Shown here in pieces: positions 2,708-14,049 of a DNA stretch of 34,399 bases. The DNA lies in the NCBI GenBank assembly GCA_039585935.1, contig JBDGUY010000002.1, positions 1-34,399 on the forward strand, given 5' to 3'. Made by a program: the position numbers and the translations under genes. Numbering within the stretch: position 1 is the stretch's first letter; every line of letters begins with the position of its first letter. The notes under the pieces are model-generated. The model was given only the letters and a program-made list of their open reading frames with translations. It had not been told where the DNA came from and did not search any database. The DNA comes from Gemmatimonadota bacterium. GTDB taxonomy: Bacteria > Gemmatimonadota > Gemmatimonadetes > Palauibacterales > Palauibacteraceae.

Positions 2708-2736
2708 TTGACCACAACATCTTGTGGGGTTATCAT
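2708..2736 (+). promoter_or_regulatory. Sigma70-type promoter TTGACC-N17-TATCAT
   Basis: -35 at 2708-2713, -10 at 2731-2736, 17-bp spacer, in an AT-richer intergenic region. Confidence 0.75.
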
Positions 2737-2759
2737 CCTCCGGGTACAATATATAGCGG
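2712..2759. promoter_or_regulatory. Tandem NrdR-box pair 1
   Basis: CCACAACATCTTGTGG (2712-2727) and GTACAATATATAGCGG (2744-2759) match the acaCwAtATaTwGtgt consensus; the starts are 32 bp apart. Confidence 0.8.
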
Positions 2760-2763
2760 TTTT

Positions 2764-2825
2764 TGTGGAAAACTCGGACCGTTTTTGGGGAAACCGGTGG
2801 AGAAACGGCCGTTGGCCGTGGAAAA
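2764..2825. promoter_or_regulatory. Cluster of co-oriented DnaA-box-like 9-mers
   Basis: TGTGGAAAA 2764-2772 (reverse complement TTTTCCACA fits TTWTNCACA), TGGGGAAAC 2786-2794, GGTGGAGAA 2796-2804 and CGTGGAAAA 2817-2825. Confidence 0.55.
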
Positions 2826-2962
2826 CCGTTCCTCGCCAAGCCCCGGGTCCGGATTGAGAATCTGTTGAGCGGCCCCTTCAACATGGTGGTGTGCAACGTG
2901 AACGGCCGGATGAGGCCGCGGGGTCGCGCACCTGCCGATGCTCCGAGAACGGTGAGGTTGTG

Positions 2963-3175
2963 ATGACTGACTCGATCGGAAGCGCAAATGCCCTTCATGC
3001 TGCTGCCGGCAGGTCAAGCCCGATTCGCAGACCGGCGATTACGGCACGCTGGGTAAGAAATGCGACGGTGGCGAACCGGATCGCGTTCGAGCAGGAGATG
3101 AAACGGGAGAGGCGAATGGGCGTCGATTCCCGTCTCAAGCGATTCGTGAAACAGGTCAGCGCCCGTCAGGCGTGA
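2963..3175 (+). CDS. Small basic hypothetical protein (70 aa)
   Basis: GAGG RBS before ATG 2963; MTDSIGSANALHAAAGRSS...FEQEMKRERRMGVDSRLKRFVKQVSARQA; bracketed by a promoter and an intrinsic terminator. Confidence 0.65.
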   Translation: MTDSIGSANALHAAAGRSSPIRRPAITARWVRNATVANRIAFEQEMKRERRMGVDSRLKRFVKQVSARQA

Positions 3176-3259
3176 GCGGAGAGCACTAGCGAAGCGACCG
3201 CGAACGAGAATACGCCGCAGGCCGGGATTGCGTACAGCGCAGGCCGGCCAACGGGCGCG

Positions 3260-3292
3260 AGGCCCCGGAGCGATCCGGGGCCTTTTCTGTTT
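3260..3292 (+). terminator. Rho-independent terminator
   Basis: AGGCCCCGGA-GCGA-TCCGGGGCCT is a perfect 10-bp stem with a GNRA loop, followed by TTTCTGTTT. Confidence 0.88.
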
Positions 3293-3372
3293 GGGGCCAG
3301 TCCGGGTTACAATCACGCCACATATTCGAGCGAGCAAACGCCAACTGGCCGTTAGTGGAGAGAACCGACCTG

Positions 3373-4656
3373 ATGACCGAAGTCGCACACCGGCAGGAAG
3401 CGCAGCGGAAGGACACTGAAGGCAAGGCCCTGGGGCCACGTCGGCCCACGGTGGTCGTGAATGTCGGCGGCGTGTTGATCGGCGGCGACCATCCGGTGGT
3501 CGTGCAGTCCATGACCAACACCGACACGGCGGATATCGGGGCGACCGTCCTGCAGGTCAGGCAGCTCGCCGAGGCCGGCAGCGAGCTGGTTCGTCTGACG
3601 GTGAACACTCCAGCGGCGGCTCGCGCCGTGCCGGAGATCGCCGAACGCCTGCGAGCTGCTGATGTGACCGTTCCATTGATCGGTGACTTTCATTTCAACG
3701 GACACATTCTGCTTCCCGGGAATCCCGGCTGCGCGGAAGCGCTGGACAAGTACCGGATCAACCCCGGAAACGTGGGTGGTCGTACGTGGGACGCGAATTT
3801 CGCTCGCATCATCGAATGTGCGGCCGAGCATGACAAGCCGGTCCGCATCGGCGTGAACTGGGGATCTCTGGACCAGGCGCTGCTGACTACGATGATGGAT
3901 GAGAATGCCTCTCTCGAGCAGCCTCGTGAGGCGCACGACGTGATGATCGATGCGATGATCGAGAGCGCGATGCGTTCGGCCCGGGTGGCCGAGGAGATCG
4001 GCCTGCCCCACGATCGGATTCTCCTGAGTGCCAAGGTCTCTGGTGTGCAGGACCTGCTGACCGTGTACCGTCGCCTCGCACCACTCTCCGATTACCCGCT
4101 CCACCTGGGTCTGACCGAGGCGGGGATGGGCAGAAAAGGGATCGTGTCGAGCACCGCCGGACTGGCGATTCTCCTCGCCGAGGGTATCGGGGACACGATC
4201 CGCGTCTCGCTCACGCCGACTCCTGGCGGTGATCGAAGTGAAGAGGTCCGGGTCGCGCGGCAGATCCTGCAGTCGCTCGGACTGCGGATGTTCGAGCCTC
4301 AGGTCACGGCCTGCCCGGGCTGTGGTCGGACCACGAGCACGTTCTTCCAGGAAATGGCACAGGAGATCGAGGAGTACTTGCGTGGGCGCATGCCCGAGTG
4401 GAGCGGAACTTACCCGGGAATCGAGAGTCTGAGCGTGGCCGTAATGGGTTGCGTGGTGAACGGTCCTGGTGAATCCCGGCATGCTGACATCGGGATCTCG
4501 CTTCCCGGGAGCTTCGAGGAACCCAGTGCACCCGTGTACGTGGACGGGGAACACCACTCGACTCTACGCGGGGACGCCATCGTCGCTCAGTTCATCGATC
4601 TCCTGGAGGAATATGTGGTGGGGCGGTTCGGGGCGGGGACTGAAGCGATGACCTGA
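3373..4656 (+). CDS. ispG: (E)-4-hydroxy-3-methylbut-2-enyl-diphosphate synthase
   Basis: [50 protein letters not shown] and [10 protein letters not shown]. Confidence 0.98.
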
Positions 4657-7447: not shown

Positions 7448-7477
7448 AAAATAGTGCATTATCGGGTCAATTGCCAA
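7448..7477 (-). promoter_or_regulatory. Putative sigma70 promoter for rpsU (TTGGCA-N18-TATTTT)
   Basis: Read on the minus strand in the AT-rich part of the intergenic gap. Confidence 0.4.
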
Positions 7478-7536
7478 CTCGCGTCCGCCGTGACGGCCGC
7501 GCGTTCCTCGATGCCGGTTTGCCGGGGGGGTGCTCG

Positions 7537-7929
7537 TCAGCGCAAGAACGTGAAGCGGGATGCGAGTCGCTGCCGGATCTGCTCGGCGAGCGTCTGGAGC
7601 TCCGGGGCAGAGCCTGCGGCCTGCCCGGAATGCCTGGAGCGCCCTGAGTCGCTCCGACTTCCGCGCTGGTCTCGTGAATTCGTAGAGACCTGGTCCGAAG
7701 GCCGTTCCTCCGAGGTCTCGCCGTCGAGCCGCGTGACATTTCGAGCTCGAGGGCCTCGATCCGCTCGTTCGACGTCGAGTTCGACCTCGGCCCCGTCGCG
7801 TAGACTCCGGAAGCCCGAACCCTGGATGTCGGAATGGTGGACGAACACCTCATTGCCATCCTCGAGCCGGATGAACCCCCACCCCTTCTCCGGGTCGAAC
7901 CACTTCACACTGCCACGCAATCGAGTCAT
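7537..7929 (-). CDS. Cold-shock domain protein with C-terminal extension (130 aa)
   Basis: GSVKWFDPEKGWGFI (RNP1), VFVHHSDI (RNP2), GFRSL and GPRARNV, then a ~60-aa tail. Confidence 0.93.
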   Translation of the reverse strand: MTRLRGSVKWFDPEKGWGFIRLEDGNEVFVHHSDIQGSGFRSLRDGAEVELDVERADRGPRARNVTRLDGETSEERPSDQVSTNSRDQRGSRSDSGRSRHSGQAAGSAPELQTLAEQIRQRLASRFTFLR

Positions 7930-8004
7930 GTTCGGCTGATTCCCTTCGTGGTCTACTTTCGGAAACGGTCCAATTCGCGCAGGACGGCCTGGACTCCGTC
8001 GGGC

Positions 8005-8033
8005 ATTGTAGGCGGGCGAACGCGATGCAACAA
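8005..8033 (-). promoter_or_regulatory. Sigma70 promoter of the cold-shock gene (TTGTTG-N17-TACAAT)
   Basis: -35 at 8033-8028, -10 at 8010-8005, about 75 bp upstream of ATG 7929. Confidence 0.65.
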
Positions 8034-8080
8034 GCGTCGGGCCGGCACTCGCCATTGGCCGCGCAACCGGATTCCAAAAC

Positions 8081-8110
8081 TTGACCCACAACATGTGGAC
8101 CCGATAGGTT
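8081..8110 (+). promoter_or_regulatory. Sigma70-type promoter TTGACC-N18-TAGGTT
   Basis: -35 at 8081-8086 and TAnnnT -10 at 8105-8110; same architecture as the promoter at 2708. Confidence 0.55.
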
Positions 8111-8132
8111 GTTTGGGCACCAGATCTTGTAC
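8086..8132. promoter_or_regulatory. Tandem NrdR-box pair 2
   Basis: CCACAACATGTGGACC (8086-8101) and GCACCAGATCTTGTAC (8117-8132); starts 31 bp apart; both keep the CnAnATnTnG core. Confidence 0.7.
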
Positions 8133-8322
8133 TTTCGGTTTCTATACGGGATCGACGTCCGATCGGAACAGGCAAGTCGCGTAGCCGGTCTCCAGTGGGC
8201 ATTCGGACCATGGTTCGTCCCGCCCGGAGAGTTTCTTCCGGCAGTTGGAGATCCTGCCCGGCACATGGTTGCCGATCGAGACACGTCTGATTTTTCCGGG
8301 TGCGGCGCCAGCTGCGCAAAAT

Positions 8323-8352
8323 TTGCCCGAACCCCGTTTCGGGCGGTACTTT
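8323..8352 (+). promoter_or_regulatory. Second putative promoter (TTGCCC-N18-TACTTT) overlapping an inverted repeat
   Basis: -35 at 8323-8328, -10 at 8347-8352; inverted repeat GCCCGAA-N6-TTCGGGC at 8325-8344. Confidence 0.45.
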
Positions 8353-8418
8353 CGTGAGTCGAACCCCTCGGCCCCGGGGTTCCGTTCGATCGCCTACCGG
8401 TGGGTAAGGAGAGGTGCT

Positions 8419-8748
8419 ATGGGAGAGGCCATTCAAATCGCACGGGACGGGTCGTTCCAGCTGGGAGAGCGTTCATACCAGATTCCCGACGTGTTCTCTC
8501 CCCGAGAAGTATTCAGCTATCGAAGGCTGCTGGAACCGATTCCGGACATTCCCGGTGGAACGAGCCTCAGCGGTGAGCAGCGTACAAGGCAGATGGCGTA
8601 TTTCTTCCGCCGGGCAGCCGCATGCGTGATTCCCGGGCTGGAGCCTGCGGAACTCGAGACCCTTCCTTTCGGGACGCTCCAGGCGATGCACGGCTGGATC
8701 GCGGCGCACCGTCCGGAACTCTGTGCCGACGGGCGCCTGATCGCCTGA
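8419..8748 (+). CDS. Hypothetical protein (109 aa)
   Basis: Strong RBS AAGGAGAGG before ATG 8419; globular-looking sequence MGEAIQIARDGSFQLGERSYQIPDVFSPREV...; no family recognised. Confidence 0.75.
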   Translation: MGEAIQIARDGSFQLGERSYQIPDVFSPREVFSYRRLLEPIPDIPGGTSLSGEQRTRQMAYFFRRAAACVIPGLEPAELETLPFGTLQAMHGWIAAHRPELCADGRLIA

Positions 8749-8759
8749 ACGCTGATGAG

Positions 8760-8790
8760 CCCGGGTCCCCTGTCCGCGTGGGGATCCGGG
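8760..8790 (+). terminator. Stem-loop after the 109-aa ORF (possible terminator or processing site)
   Basis: CCCGGGTCCC...GGGATCCGGG forms a 10-bp stem with one G-U pair; no clear U-tract. Confidence 0.35.
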
Positions 8791-8857
8791 TATGCAGCGT
8801 CCGAGTTCCCGCTCGACGCTTCCATCCACCAGAGACCTTCGAAAACGGTTGTTCGTG

Positions 8858-10309
8858 ATGAATGAGAGCCCCGCCTTCCGGCGCGCCAAGATCCTTTGCA
8901 CGCTCGGACCCGCGAGCCGGGACCCGGGGGTATTCAAATCTCTCGTCGAAGCGGGCCTCGACGGGGTGCGCGTGAATTTTTCCCACAGTTCGCACGAGCA
9001 GGCAGCCCGGGCGGTCGAACTCGCGCGCTCCGCGTCCAGGGAGTCCGGTCGCGCGATCTCTGTCCTGGCTGATCTTCAGGGTCCGAAGATTCGGGTTGGA
9101 CTGCTTGCCTCTCCGCTGGAAATCGAGACCGGCGCGACCTACCTGGCCTATCCGGAAGATGAGGTGCCGGGTCCCGCGGATTCGACGGGACCCGTGCAGA
9201 TCCCGACCACGTACCCGGATCTCGCCACAGACCTCGGCCCGGGGGACCGGGTGCTGTTCGACGACGGCAAGATCGAACTGTCCGTGCTCGAGATCCAGGA
9301 CAACCGCGTGCTTCTCGAGGCGCTCGAGGGCGGCCCCCTCCGTTCCGGGAAGGGCATCAATCTTCCCGGGGTGGAGATCGGGGCGCCAAGCCTGACGGAA
9401 AAAGACCGTGAGGACGCCCGACTCGCGCTCGATCTGGGGGTCGATTACATCGCCCTGAGTTTCGTCCGCCGACCGGACGACCTGGACGAGTTGCGCGAGC
9501 TGGTCGCGGGGCGCGCACTGCTGATCGCGAAGATCGAAATGGCCCAGGCCCTTCGAAATCTCCACGGGATTCTGGCCAATGCGGATGGAGTGATGGTGGC
9601 CCGTGGAGACCTCGGAGTAGAGCTGGACTTCGAGGAGGTCCCGCTGGTTCAGAAGCGGATACTCCGCCTCACGAGCAGGGCCGCGAAGCTCGGAATCACG
9701 GCGACGCAGATGCTGGAATCGATGATCGTCTCCTCTCGTCCCACGCGCGCCGAGGTGTCGGATGTGGCAAACGCGCTGTTGGACGGGACGGATGCGGTGA
9801 TGCTCTCTGCAGAGACTGCGATCGGGGAGTATCCGGTCGAGTCGGTCAGCACGATGGCACGCATCATTCAACGGATCGAGCGAGAGCCTGGAATCGACGA
9901 AGACGTACAGGGAAGCGCACGGTTTCGCGGCCTGGCTCCGGTACACCATACGGTCGCCGGCGCCGTCGCCGGAGCGGCGGCTGAGGCCACGGACAGGCTC
10001 GGAGCTCCATTCCTCGTGACGTTCACCAACAGCGGATTCACGGCGTGGGTCCAGTCGGCTCAGCGACTGAAGGTTCCGATCCTGGCCGTTACGGACCAGC
10101 CCCGGACGTTCAGCCAGTTGGCGCTCGCCTACGGTGTCGTGCCGCTGCTGCTCGAAGCGGAAGCCTCGTACGAAAACATGCTGGAGTCGGCGCGGGTATT
10201 TGCCCGGCAGCACGGACTCGGCGAGGAAGGGGCCTCCTTCGTCGTGACAGCCGGAGTACCTTTCCACACCCCAGGCACGACGAACTACATGCGGATCGAA
10301 ACGCTCTGA
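8858..10309 (+). CDS. pyk: Pyruvate kinase
   Basis: KILCTLGPAS, RVNFSH, DLQGPKIR, IAKIE, MVARGDLGVE, ATQMLESM, PTRAEVSDVANA and DAVMLSAETA. Confidence 0.98.
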   Translation: MNESPAFRRAKILCTLGPASRDPGVFKSLVEAGLDGVRVNFSHSSHEQAARAVELARSASRESGRAISVLADLQGPKIRVGLLASPLEIETGATYLAYPEDEVPGPADSTGPVQIPTTYPDLATDLGPGDRVLFDDGKIELSVLEIQDNRVLLEALEGGPLRSGKGINLPGVEIGAPSLTEKDREDARLALDLGVDYIALSFVRRPDDLDELRELVAGRALLIAKIEMAQALRNLHGILANADGVMVARGDLGVELDFEEVPLVQKRILRLTSRAAKLGITATQMLESMIVSSRPTRAEVSDVANALLDGTDAVMLSAETAIGEYPVESVSTMARIIQRIEREPGIDEDVQGSARFRGLAPVHHTVAGAVAGAAAEATDRLGAPFLVTFTNSGFTAWVQSAQRLKVPILAVTDQPRTFSQLALAYGVVPLLLEAEASYENMLESARVFARQHGLGEEGASFVVTAGVPFHTPGTTNYMRIETL

Positions 10310-10317
10310 GGACAGGC

Positions 10318-11094
10318 GTGAACCTTCGATTCCTCGGTACCGGCACTTCGTTCGGCATTCCCGTCATCGGGTGTCGGTGCGCCGTATGCACCTCCACCGA
10401 TTCTCGAAACAAGCGGACTCGCCATGCTGTCGTGCTCGAAGCTGGCGATCACCGGCTGCTGGTCGACACTCCGCCGGAGTTGCGACTGCAGCTCCTGGCG
10501 GCGGACATCGATCGAGTCGATGCGGTGTTCCTTTCACACCCGCATGCCGACCACCTGCACGGGATCGACGATCTGCGCGCATTCACGGGGCACGATGAAT
10601 CCCGAATACCGCTGCACCTCGCGGCCGAGCACGTGGCCGAGGTCGCCACGCGGTTTTCGTACTTCCTGGGCCCCGAGCCCAGCAGACAGCCGGGGACCGT
10701 GGTGCCGAGCGTCGAACTGACGCCGTTTAACGATCGCGACCAGGTACATGCGGCGGGATTCGACCTTCGGGTGATCGGCTTCCCGCACGGGGCCTACCGG
10801 AGCTACGGGTTCCGGTGCGGAGATCTGTCGCTGATCGTTGATGCGAAGCGAGTGCCCGATGAGGTGTGGGGTCTTCTCGAGGGTAGCCGGGTACTGGTTC
10901 TCAACGCACTGTGGTTCGGTTCGCCGCACCCCGCTCATTTCAACGTCGAACAGGCGCTCGAAGTCATCGAGCGAGTACGTCCGGAGAGGGCATTTCTGAC
11001 GCATCTGACGCACAGGTTGGACCACGAGGATTTGAACGAGAGGCTGCCGCAGGGCGTCGAGGCGGCCTGCGATGGAATGGTGGTCGAGATCTGA
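10318..11094 (+). CDS. MBL-fold phosphodiesterase (PhnP/YycJ-like)
   Basis: GTG start 10318; FLGTGTSFGIPVIGCRCAVC, SHPHADHLHGIDDLR, HPAHF and THLTH. Confidence 0.92.
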   Translation: MNLRFLGTGTSFGIPVIGCRCAVCTSTDSRNKRTRHAVVLEAGDHRLLVDTPPELRLQLLAADIDRVDAVFLSHPHADHLHGIDDLRAFTGHDESRIPLHLAAEHVAEVATRFSYFLGPEPSRQPGTVVPSVELTPFNDRDQVHAAGFDLRVIGFPHGAYRSYGFRCGDLSLIVDAKRVPDEVWGLLEGSRVLVLNALWFGSPHPAHFNVEQALEVIERVRPERAFLTHLTHRLDHEDLNERLPQGVEAACDGMVVEI

Positions 11095-11124
11095 TTGCTG
11101 TACGCAGGGAGCGCGTCTTATATT
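11095..11124 (+). promoter_or_regulatory. Putative lepA promoter (TTGCTG-N18-TATATT)
   Basis: -35 at 11095-11100 and -10 at 11119-11124, in the 68-bp gap before lepA. Confidence 0.5.
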
Positions 11125-11162
11125 CGCGCTCCCGAAAATACGCCGAATCACCAGAGGTCTGA

Positions 11163-12962
11163 GTGAAGTTAGATTCGATTCGCAACTTCTCCATCGTCGC
11201 CCATATCGACCACGGGAAGTCGACGCTCGCCGATCGCCTGCTCGAGCGCACGGGCGCCGTAGAGCTCAGGAAGATGAAGGAGCAGGTGCTCGACTCGATG
11301 GATCTCGAGCGAGAACGAGGCATCACGATCAAGCTGAACGCGATCCGCCTGCCATATCGCGCCCTCGACGGTCGGGACTACGAGCTCAATCTGATCGACA
11401 CGCCGGGGCATGTGGACTTCACTTACGAGGTAAGCCGAAGCCTCGAGGCGTGCGAAGGCGCGCTCCTGATCATCGATGCATCGCAGGGAATCGAGGCCCA
11501 GACCATCTCCAACCTGTTTCTGGCCTTGAATGCAGGCCTGGAGATCATCCCGGTGATCAACAAGATTGATCTGCCTGCGGCGGAGCCGGAGCGCCGTCGA
11601 GATGAGGTCTGTGACCTGATGGGGATCGATCCGGACGACGTGCTCTTCGCGTCCGCCAAGGAGGGCTCGGGCATAGACGAGATCCTCGAGGCGATCGTGA
11701 GTCGCGTACCTCCCCCGACCGGGAATCCGGAGGCTCCGCTGCGGGCTCTGATCTTCGATTCCATGTACGACAAGTACCGGGGAGCCGTGCCGTTCATCCG
11801 GGTCGTGGACGGCTCGATCCGACCGGGCCAGAAGATCGGATTCGGAAAGGCCGCTGCGGTCTACGAGGTCGGCGAAGTCGGGTTTCTGCGCCTTGGATAT
11901 CAGCCGGTGGACGAGCTCTCGACCGGTGAAGTGGGCTACCTGACCGCTCAGATCAAGAACATCGCCGATACGAAGGTCGGAGATACGATCGTCGACGCCG
12001 AACGCCGGGCGACGGAGCTTCTGCCGGGCTACCAGGAGGCGAAGCCGGTCGTATTCGCCGGTCTGTATCCGTCGGACTCGGACCAGTTCGAGGAACTGCG
12101 CGATGCCCTGGCGCGCCTGCAGCTCAACGATGCGAGTCTGCATTACGAACCCGAGACTTCTCAGGCCCTCGGATTCGGATTCCGCTGCGGATTTCTCGGA
12201 TTGCTCCACATGGAGATCGTGCAGGAACGGCTCGAGCGGGAGGCAGGGCTCGATCTCGTGACCACGATCCCCAACGTCGAGTACCGTGTTACTCTGACCA
12301 ACGACCAGACGGTCTCGGTGGAAAATCCGAGCAAGATGCCCGAACGGGGTGTGATCGAAACCGTCGAGGAGCCCTACGTCCGAATTCACATGGTGACTCC
12401 GTCCGACTATATCGGCGGTATCCAGGCCCTGTGTCACGATCGCCGGGGAGAGTACGTCGGGCTGCACTACCTGGACTCGAATCGAGTCGAGATTCGCTAC
12501 GACATTCCGCTGGCGGAGATCGTACTCGATTTCTACGATCGGCTGAAGACGATCTCGAGGGGCTACGCGGCGCTGGACTATGAAATGGCCGGATTCCGGC
12601 TGTCCGACCTGGTCAAGCTGGACATCCTGCTGAATGGCGATCCGGTGGATGCGCTCAGCGTAATCGTGCACCGGGATCGCGCCTACGACTACGGCCGCAA
12701 GGTGGCCCGAAAGCTTCGCGAATTGATCCCGAGGCAGATGTTCGAGGTGGCGATTCAGGCGGCGATCGGTCGCGAGGTGATCGCCAGGGAGACAGTGAAA
12801 GCGCTCCGCAAGAACGTCACCGCGAAGTGCTACGGCGGAGACATCTCGCGAAAGCGCAAGCTGCTCGAGAAGCAGAAAGAGGGGAAACGCCGCATGAAAC
12901 AGGTGGGATCGGTCGAGATCCCGCAGGAGGCGTTTCTCGCCGTGTTGCAGGTCGGCGACTGA
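11163..12962 (+). CDS. lepA: Translation elongation factor 4
   Basis: [53 protein letters not shown] and [18 protein letters not shown]. Confidence 0.99.
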
Positions 12963-12978
12963 GGAATCGGGGTAGCCT

Positions 12979-14049
12979 GTGACGGACCGCCTGGTCATAC
13001 GAGCGCCGAACCACCTCGGGGAGATGATTCTCGCGTTGCCAGCACTGCATGCGGCGAGCGCGCGTGAACGAGCCGAAAAAGGCACTGCACCGATCGTCCA
13101 GGCCGTGAGCGGATTGGTACCATTGTTTACACTCGCCGGCCTCGACGCTCGTGTACTGGCGCTGTCGGACCGGCGGGACATTCGGGCCGCAGCTGGTGAA
13201 CTCCGTGACCGGGGCGCTCGGCGGGGAATTCTCCTCACGCCTTCGATCTCTTCTGCGCTCATCTTCCGGGCGGCCGGGCTGGCGACACGCCGCGGAACCA
13301 CCGGGGGCGGGCGTGCCTGGTTGCTGACCGACCCCGTCGACCGGTCCGAACTGCTTACTGATCACCGGGTGAAGGAGTTCATGGCGATCGCCGGGCTGCC
13401 CGTGGCTGAAGGTGAACCGCCGGCCCCGCGTCTCACAGAGCTCACCGCGTCCGCCTCGGCATGGGCGGACAGGCGGAAGGCCCTGCGGATTCCGGACGAC
13501 GGTAGATCGCCCGTGGCCCTGTTCCCTGGTGCGAAGGGAGCATCCCGCCGCTGGCCGGCAGAGAAGTTCGCAGCGCTCGGGCGTTCGCTCGCCGGGCGCG
13601 GGTATCGGGTTCTCGTACTTGGCGGACCCGACGATCGCGAGATTACGGCGGAGGTGACCGGGAGTGCGAGGACGGTCGATGGTCAACACGACGGTTCGGT
13701 GCTCGATCTCGGCGGCCGTACTTCACTGATAGAATTGGCCGGGCTCCTCGCGGAGTGCCATCTTCTGATAACGAACGACACTGGCCCGATGCACCTGGCG
13801 GCGGCACTCGATCGGCCCATCGTGGCGCTTGAGGGGCCGGCGGACATCCGGCAGACGCGTCCGCTCGCGAGTCGTGTGCGGCTGATCGGCCGGTTCGATC
13901 TACCCTGTGTCCCGTGTGTGAAGAACGAATGCCCGCGTACTGGTCGGGGCACCGTGCTCGAGTCGGCGGAGCGTGAGTGCCTCAGGCTCGTAACGGTCGA
14001 TGAGGTGCTCGAAGCCTCGGTCGCCCTTCTCGAGGAGGCGTCACCGTGA
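12979..14049 (+). CDS. Glycosyltransferase family 9 (LPS heptosyltransferase II, WaaF-like)
   Basis: RAPNHLGE, PGA...RRWP, NDTGPMHLAAAL and the Cys cluster CVPC...CP...C. Confidence 0.88.
   Translation: MTDRLVIRAPNHLGEMILALPALHAASARERAEKGTAPIVQAVSGLVPLFTLAGLDARVLALSDRRDIRAAAGELRDRGARRGILLTPSISSALIFRAAGLATRRGTTGGGRAWLLTDPVDRSELLTDHRVKEFMAIAGLPVAEGEPPAPRLTELTASASAWADRRKALRIPDDGRSPVALFPGAKGASRRWPAEKFAALGRSLAGRGYRVLVLGGPDDREITAEVTGSARTVDGQHDGSVLDLGGRTSLIELAGLLAECHLLITNDTGPMHLAAALDRPIVALEGPADIRQTRPLASRVRLIGRFDLPCVPCVKNECPRTGRGTVLESAERECLRLVTVDEVLEASVALLEEASP

Follow-up and report, generated by a model that had tools for sequence, protein, structure and literature searches.

The repressor NrdR is described in two papers as a tetramer that with dATP and ATP binds two 16-bp boxes lying 15-16 bp apart; the ATP-only forms do not bind, and both boxes are needed (PMC12051234, PMC9110341). 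The same papers call NrdR specific for ribonucleotide reductase (RNR) (PMC9110341; PMC12051234), and one of them mentions the topA gene of Pseudomonas aeruginosa as a proposed single-box NrdR site whose mechanism is called questionable (PMC12051234). Reconstructed NrdR regulons in Proteobacteria average 3.2 genes (PMC5343134), and a phrase search of PMC13584703 returned no passages on non-RNR NrdR targets. A full-text literature search, with subscription journals and supplements outside it, returned no paper linking NrdR with Gemmatimonadota (one match, naming each term once), with the regulation of ispG (two incidental matches) or with that of pyruvate kinase. Here we analyze a pair of NrdR-type boxes at positions 8086 and 8117 of a 34,399-nt stretch (the window; positions 1 to 34,399 of contig JBDGUY010000002.1, our contig C2) from a metagenome-assembled genome of a Gemmatimonadota bacterium (GCA_039585935.1; 71% complete, 2.42 Mb). 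The boxes lie upstream of a gene for an orphan 109-aa protein, p109, and of the pyruvate kinase gene pyk. We conclude that they are probably a working NrdR operator on the promoter of a structured leader, p109 and, part-time, pyk. The parts of this unit are as follows.

8081-8110, plus strand: sigma-70-type promoter, with -35 TTGACC at 8081-8086, an 18-nt spacer and -10 TAGGTT at 8105-8110

8086-8101, no strand assigned: NrdR box 1, CCACAACATGTGGACC, with a good left half and a right half that is degenerate in the source genome

8117-8132, no strand assigned: NrdR box 2, GCACCAGATCTTGTAC, over the expected transcription start

8117-8418, plus strand: 5' leader of about 300 nt, its probable start placed from the -10

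8419-8748, plus strand: p109, 109 aa, with AAGGAGAGG at 8406-8414; relatives in Gemmatimonadota only

8858-10309, plus strand: pyruvate kinase pyk, 483 aa; PF00224, E 4e-100, and PF02887, E 1.3e-25 (barrel plus C-terminal alpha/beta domain)

The two boxes are 31 bp apart start to start, with a 15-bp spacer at 8102-8116. Conserved -35 and -10 hexamers bracket box 1, which overlaps the final base of the -35 hexamer, while box 2 begins 7 nt past the -10, where transcription would be expected to start. In an alignment of genus g1, TTGACC, both boxes and a TAnnnT hexamer between them are strongly conserved, box 2 being almost invariant. Across loci the TAnnnT between the boxes (TAGGTT, TAAGTT, TAGAAT, TATCTT, TAGATT, TATAAT or TATAGT) is always oriented to p109 or pyk, and no comparable hexamer occurs on the reverse strand. 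We assign the promoter because of this conservation and not because of consensus strength. An earlier sequence-only reading of the window had quoted TTGACCCACAACAT here and TTGACCACAACAT at a second operator, and both strings are present, at 8081-8094 and 2708-2720. Its description of a -35 abutting box 1, with box 2 lying 31 bp on over the expected start, fits the sequence, in which box 1 overlaps the last -35 base. The 109-aa open reading frame that it placed downstream, with a strong ribosome-binding site, is real and carries AAGGAGAGG, but it begins about 300 nt from the promoter and is not adjacent to it.

To avoid circularity, the boxes were scored with a matrix built from RNR promoters only: 68 boxes (51 unique) from 34 RNR promoters of relatives, none of them from the source genome or from p109 or ispG sites. 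The consensus of this matrix is CCACAACATGTTGTGG. Among 2,417,367 positions, box 2 ranks 7 (13.6 bits) and box 1 ranks 26 (10.2 bits), and just two pairs in the genome pass at a distance of 30-33 bp, namely 2712 (40.0 bits) and 8086 (23.8 bits). Scoring of the whole 2.42-Mb genome with an NrdR-box consensus likewise places the 8086 pair second, behind 2712/2744. Pairs whose boxes each reach at least 8 bits at a distance of 31/32 bp are absent from all 30 locally shuffled genomes, compared with two in the real genome. The genome scan for pairs at 31-32 bp thus bears out the earlier view that two such operators are unlikely by chance. Of the 41 genomes in the order, 38 contain the loose pattern CNANATNTNG-N21/22-CNANATNTNG, at 1-5 places each; a reversed control pattern matched none of the 41.

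The pair is also retained in relatives. It lies 23-43 nt upstream of a conserved RNA motif (described below) in 30 of 30 loci from 8 genera, with a start-to-start distance of 31-32 bp in every one, and so its absence from orthologous loci, which would have spoken against the operator, is not what we find where the motif is present. In the first sample, the pair precedes p109 in every genus g1 locus with upstream sequence and in five more genera, whose copies are closer to consensus; orthologous copies of box 1 in other genera score 14-21 bits. The pair sums of the 13 p109-class sites range from 21.8 to 40.5 bits, with a median of 30.7. No pair was detected in seven family-f1 loci, from genera lacking the RNA motif, or in eight family-f2 loci.

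The cognate regulator is encoded in the same genome. The source genome G000 has one nrdR gene (contig C25, 9576-10100, minus strand), whose product combines a Zn-ribbon (CPRC...CLGC) with an ATP-cone and scores 178.9 bits against TIGR00244, for which the cut-off is 124.65; nrdR is single-copy and was found in 40 of the 41 genomes of the order. The box match, the 15-16 bp spacing and a cognate nrdR are therefore all found for 8086/8117, and an RNR operon downstream is not. The source genome's own RNR promoter is missing because a contig end cuts the RNR gene. In sister genomes, a third match to the pattern lies directly before a class II RNR gene (Pfam PF02867, PF00317, TSCPD), about 8 kb upstream of the site corresponding to 2708, that is, past the start of the source contig. 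The p109 site follows about 5.4 kb downstream of the 2708-type site, which places three operators in about 14 kb. The second operator and its genes have the following coordinates in the window.

2708-2759, plus strand: sister operator, with TTGACC, box 1 at 2712-2727, -10 TATCAT at 2731-2736 and box 2 at 2744-2759, separated by a 16-bp spacer

2963-3175, plus strand: 70-aa basic protein, conserved, the first gene after the sister operator

3355-4656, plus strand: ispG (PF04551), following the 70-aa gene

The 2712 pair is the best in the genome, and 13 loci keep it ahead of the 70-aa gene and ispG. The 70-aa protein belongs to no Pfam, NCBIfam or PHROG family. It was found in family f1 only (19 of 24 f1 genomes), in 20 of the order's 41 genomes, with its gene always about 200-300 nt after the boxes; in genome G012 its gene sits beside csp/p109 and not beside ispG. 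Pair sums are 35.2-45.4 bits at the 13 ispG-type sites and 32.5-43.0 bits at the RNR sites, the latter being self-scored. In family f1 the nrdJ, 70-aa/ispG and p109 operators share one layout, in which cTTGAC abuts box 1 and is followed by TAnnnT and box 2. Family f2 has the RNR operator alone, as far as it was found, with another promoter layout: its RNR promoters (L033-L046) have TTGACA about 14 nt ahead of box 1, which covers the -10 and not the -35/spacer.

We assign the 8086 site to the NrdR type because of its ranks under the RNR-only matrix, its spacer, the presence of nrdR, the common layout and its conservation. Because NrdR-type operators at non-RNR genes are conserved across genera in nrdR-bearing genomes, the NrdR regulon appears to have genuinely expanded in this lineage; judged by sequence, this would be a known system with conserved new targets, an undescribed leader RNA and an orphan protein. 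The sequence-only reading had anticipated an expanded regulon, and operators at two non-RNR units, their conservation across genera and an nrdR gene in 40 of 41 genomes sustain that part. Its remark that neither operator stands at an RNR gene holds inside the window but has to be amended for the sister genomes, with their third operator on the class II RNR. The further characterization of the targets as small lineage-specific genes is incomplete, since the units run on into ispG and the main pyk, and genus g7 has boxes and leader ahead of pyk with p109 not found. That the 70-aa and 109-aa proteins work as one system is not supported: they differ in range across the order (20 of 41 genomes, f1 only, versus 38 of 41), boxes precede p109 in a subclade only, and the two leaders differ.

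The leader downstream of the operator contains a structured element and, in its 3' part, a hairpin.

8169-8271, plus strand: three-way-junction RNA motif (covariance model R1, 58.6 bits), a candidate cis-regulatory element

8325-8344, plus strand: GC-rich hairpin followed by GGTACTTTCGTG, in the genus-specific 3' part of the leader, conserved in g1 only

The leader measures 274-309 nt in all but one of the 14 aligned loci, the exception having 197 nt. The core shared by these loci consists of GGCGCCCGGCGGG, a variable hairpin, CCCGTCAGTTGCGCTTCGCC, a loop and GGCGRGGGCGCC, and folds as a three-way junction. R1 matches 32 of 121 genomes of the order, each of them exactly once. These all belong to family f1 (genera g1, g5, g6, g7, g11, g12, g13 and g28); R1 finds no copy in 31 genomes of family f2 or in 32 of the large f1 genus g26. 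Among 33 motif sequences, 96.8% of cells are paired, versus 41-61% when the partners are slid, and the outer helix shows compensatory changes at four of five pairs; the inner helices are almost invariant and therefore uninformative on pairing. The minimum-free-energy z-score of the whole leader (-0.33) is likewise uninformative because the DNA is GC-rich. p109 follows the motif in 29 of 30 loci. That the 8325-8344 hairpin acts as a terminator or attenuator is conjecture.

The motif matches no described RNA family. None of 4227 Rfam families matched the window at its gathering score or the leader at E <=10, and a search of six orthologous leaders at E <=1 gave a sole match, Xoo8 in locus L009 (16.6 bits versus a gathering score of 90, E 0.58). 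A pattern made from the invariant part occurs at 48 places in 185,579 species genomes. Thirty-four of these carry the whole motif, in genomes titled Gemmatimonadota/Gemmatimonadales, “uncultured bacterium” or one of two Candidatus Palauibacteraceae genera; the other 14 are in genomes titled as other phyla or “bacterium”, and the rest of the motif is not present there. The element resembles riboswitch-type leaders in being a single-copy, leader-located multi-stem junction with near-invariant internal loops and a covarying outer helix, and in placing the junction just before the ribosome-binding site in its compact versions. Unlike them, it matches none of the Rfam families and is a candidate only, which could equally be a protein-binding leader.

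The start of pyk is set at 8858 because its closest relatives are 483 aa long; its named relatives are all Gemmatimonadota. Of 25 genomes, 21 have one PF00224 match, three have two and one has none, and because most hold a single match, the gene at 8858-10309 is probably the main pyruvate kinase of the source genome. In genus g7 (two of two genomes), the boxes (40.5 and 42.4 bits) and the RNA motif are followed by pyk about 105-130 nt on; p109 was not found in either genome with the profile at E <=1, at completeness of 93% and 81%. Family f2 has pyk on the same strand, 3-5 kb from p109. We also considered whether pyruvate kinase replaces an absent nucleoside-diphosphate kinase and rejected the idea, as ndk (PF00334) is present in 39 of 41 genomes including the source. 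Between p109 and pyk lies one further feature.

8760-8790, plus strand: strong hairpin just past the p109 stop, with no T run in the source genome

Contigs of four RNA libraries from three studies match this region (at least 93% likeness). Such contigs reveal neither transcript ends nor strand, and two of the libraries, made with oligo-dT, may carry DNA. The contigs cover the leader and p109 (8184-8474 and 8321-8846) and cross the hairpin after p109 (8189-8885 and 8662-8846, from two libraries), and lend weak support to a leader-p109-pyk transcript.

p109 is an orphan protein with a well-defined fold. Within the order, it was detected in 38 of 41 genomes. Its 114 relatives span 73-176 aa, with 111 in the range 102-115 aa; all source names given for them are “hypothetical protein” and all named organisms are Gemmatimonadota. 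A profile search of 1.84 billion representatives gave 12 matches, all to the same small family or to spurious long proteins. Twenty-two residues are invariant, within PREVFSYRRLLEPIPDIPGG ... RRAAACVIPGL ... H.W. p109 belongs to no Pfam, NCBIfam or PHROG family (the best PHROG, E 0.14, is a family of unknown function). AlphaFold (AF2) predicts a beta-hairpin and four or five helices with good confidence (predicted local distance difference test, pLDDT, 86.4; predicted template-modeling score, pTM, 0.78). The structural search suggested by the sequence-only reading thus yields a confident fold but no significant relative: the best PDB match in Foldseek has E 1.2, VIA-align (48,161 chains) gives a best Z of 4.5 and the viral library a best E of 0.035, none significant. 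Like phage tail assembly chaperones (gpG-like; PDB 2ob9; Pfam GP24_25), p109 is a small protein of a beta-hairpin and helices. Twelve of the top 50 viral-library rows are tail-assembly or tape-measure chaperones (template-modeling scores of about 0.35-0.53), and 2ob9 appears in both PDB searches, all of these being non-significant; a language-model lead in this direction scored 0.90. Unlike the genes of such chaperones, that of p109 stands in a housekeeping context with no prophage, and we treat the likeness as a lead only. The neighbors of p109 in family f2 (a tetratricopeptide repeat protein, DUF6941 and an amidohydrolase) give no functional hint, and a co-fold of p109 with pyruvate kinase, with alignments for both chains, returned “no answer” (score 0.00), which weighs neither way. 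Our working guess, of low confidence, is that p109 may be a small adaptor- or chaperone-like protein binding a partner made under dNTP demand.

Upstream, the operator faces a divergently transcribed cold-shock gene, which the sequence-only reading had overlooked, as it had the RNA motif and pyk.

7699-7929, minus strand: cold-shock gene csp, 76 aa (PF00313 CSD, E 2e-21), divergent from the operator

8005-8034, minus strand: probable csp promoter, TTGTTG, 17 nt and TACAAT, both hexamers conserved in the genus g1 alignment

Because csp is on the minus strand, the 488-bp region between it and p109 is a divergent intergenic region; the csp promoter keeps at least 52 bp from box 1. The order csp on the minus strand, then p109 and pyk on the plus strand, is found in 20 of 22 family-f1 loci, the other two being cut off upstream, and in none of eight family-f2 loci. 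Long open reading frames across csp and the adjoining intergenic DNA (299 aa on the minus strand at 7537-8436 and 167 aa on the plus strand at 8245-8748; window 7454-8436) are spurious, as is expected in GC-rich DNA, the real genes being far shorter.

Several other observations concern the sister operators. The sequence GTGGA(A/G)A(A/G) is present in 1-3 copies in the leader after the 2708-type operator (window 2766-2827; L056, L063-L066, L069-L076 and L092), at fixed offsets of about +8, +40 and +61/+82 nt past box 2. It occurs in 13 of 13 ispG-type, 11 of 34 RNR-type (10 in f1) and none of 13 p109-type loci, against a background of 0.02 per 200 nt, and the regular spacing of the copies, about 21 and 32 nt, hints at sites bound by a second factor or at an RNA element. 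The class II RNR of L066 (contig C3 of G021, about 9459-13286) is interrupted near query residues 313/310 by about 1.3 kb of non-aligning DNA, which may be an intein or other insertion. Between the 70-aa frame and ispG, at 3206-3293 of the window, there is a sub-threshold Rfam match to the small RNA BjrC68 (23.1 bits versus a gathering score of 39, E 0.0014), probably by chance. Further box-pair pattern matches are not assigned to RNR, ispG or p109 (G021 C34 and C72; G015 C37; G017 C164; G033 C66; G028 C1 at about 328935). One of them, L083, sits between convergent aldehyde dehydrogenase and GHMP-kinase genes, and at L083, L084, L090, L081, L035/L088 and L040 no recognizable nucleotide-metabolism gene start adjoins the match.

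A number of observations weigh against the 8086 pair as an operator for a leader-p109-pyk transcript. At 23.8 bits the source-genome pair is among the weakest of the p109 class, the right half of its box 1 is degenerate, TAGGTT is a poor -10 hexamer and a consensus promoter scanner did not list the 8081-8110 promoter; the description of NrdR as RNR-specific, in the papers cited above, points the same way. The strong hairpin after the p109 stop does not suit a simple operon with pyk. At locus L016 the corresponding hairpin carries a T8 tail, and a -10-like TATCTT stands between it and pyk; because of these two features pyk may be transcribed mainly from its own promoter in that genus. One RNA-library contig (8043-8210) also covers the promoter, as DNA carry-over would, and since ndk is so widespread, pyk is not needed as a stand-in deoxynucleoside-diphosphate kinase. 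We read the hairpin after p109 as attenuating or processing and suppose that some genera have an internal promoter, but the unit could also be p109 by itself.

These points feed four other explanations. The weak score, together with the 10.2 bits and lost right half-site of box 1, would suit a decaying relic, ancestrally functional and now too weak to repress, with p109 and pyk constitutive or controlled by the leader. We consider this improbable, given that the genus shows almost no change in box 2 or in the left half-site of box 1 while neighboring intergenic DNA diverges freely, and that the source-genome pair stands far above any shuffle. That a palindrome-binding regulator other than NrdR uses the sites is extremely improbable, for the boxes fit a matrix from the same lineage's RNR promoters with the same 15-16 bp spacer, and nrdR is single-copy in nearly all genomes. 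The hairpins in the leader and after p109, and the terminator-promoter arrangement of L016, would in turn fit a site at which only a small regulatory RNA is made or the transcript ends before or just after p109, leaving pyk independent and p109 alone, or the RNA alone, as the target. This is unlikely in our judgment: genus g7 has the boxes and RNA motif directly before pyk, in genera g11 and g28 only 33-46 nt separate the end of the motif from the p109 start, as expected of a leader, and contigs bridge the p109-pyk gap in two RNA libraries, if weakly.

Finally, the NrdR site could be real and the regulated gene be csp instead of p109 and pyk, as csp flanks the site in every locus with available sequence and one RNA-library contig extends from csp to 8082. 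We regard this as very improbable because csp owns a conserved TTGTTG-17-TACAAT promoter with its -35 52 bp from box 1, the -35 and -10 around the boxes point away from csp in all genera, and the distance from the boxes to csp varies from 72 to 560 nt whereas that to the RNA motif is fixed at 23-43 nt. An operator for the leader, p109 and, part-time, pyk is the explanation that we carry forward.

The analysis establishes the boxes with their significance and conservation, the orientation of the -10, the linkage to the RNA motif, p109 and pyk, and an nrdR gene in the genome. From these we infer that NrdR binds, how it regulates, where transcription starts, that it reads through into pyk and what the RNA and p109 do, along the following lines. 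With dATP and ATP bound, when dATP is high relative to demand, NrdR would, by analogy, bind both boxes as a tetramer and block RNA polymerase; with ATP only, it would release the operator, as other NrdRs do. The resulting transcript would comprise the leader of about 300 nt with its three-way junction, then p109, and then, by at least part-time read-through past the hairpin, pyk; the RNA motif would probably be a second, post-initiation control point. In family f1, NrdR would tie three units to the dNTP/ATP state, namely the class II RNR, the 70-aa protein with ispG, and p109 with pyk. High dATP would then shut the p109/pyk promoter together with nrdJ and 70-aa/ispG, although the data give no reason why pyk and ispG should follow dNTP demand. 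A bolder proposal, which we find doubtful, is that in Palauibacteraceae-like Gemmatimonadota NrdR, once an RNR-only repressor, was recruited into a small growth-state regulon coupling dNTP demand to the ATP/pyruvate output of pyk and to ispG, in which a riboswitch-class RNA senses a nucleotide or glycolytic metabolite and p109 and the 70-aa protein are new nucleotide or replication accessory factors.

The papers cited here treat NrdR as a dedicated RNR repressor whose lone proposed outside target is disputed; here canonical two-box operators stand at two non-RNR operons. If binding holds true, the control exerted by a dATP/ATP sensor would extend to genes of central carbon and isoprenoid metabolism, and the question of what else NrdR controls would become directly testable. 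The host lineage is a single group of Gemmatimonadota from marine sediment. Very few members of this phylum have been cultured, and the locus contributes a single-copy structured leader RNA, not found outside Gemmatimonadota, and a well-folded orphan protein.

Taken together, the locus is most like the NrdR operators at RNR promoters (nrdRJ and nrdAB of Streptomyces coelicolor, nrd of E. coli, nrdAB and nrdDG of Listeria). It shares with them a pair of partially palindromic 16-bp boxes set 15-16 bp apart, boxes that would overlap the promoter and start, and a genome encoding a Zn-ribbon plus ATP-cone NrdR; it differs in its genes, which are those of an orphan small protein and pyruvate kinase behind a long structured leader and not RNR. 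Like P. aeruginosa topA, it puts forward a non-RNR gene as an NrdR target, but topA has a single box at which NrdR would be an activator, whereas here a two-box operator in a repressor position is conserved across genera. Compared with the lineage's own nrdJ and 70-aa/ispG operators, the p109 site has the identical layout of cTTGAC, box 1, TAnnnT and box 2, but mostly a 15-bp instead of a 16-bp spacer, weaker boxes and, in place of the GTGGA(A/G)A(A/G) repeats, the three-way-junction RNA.

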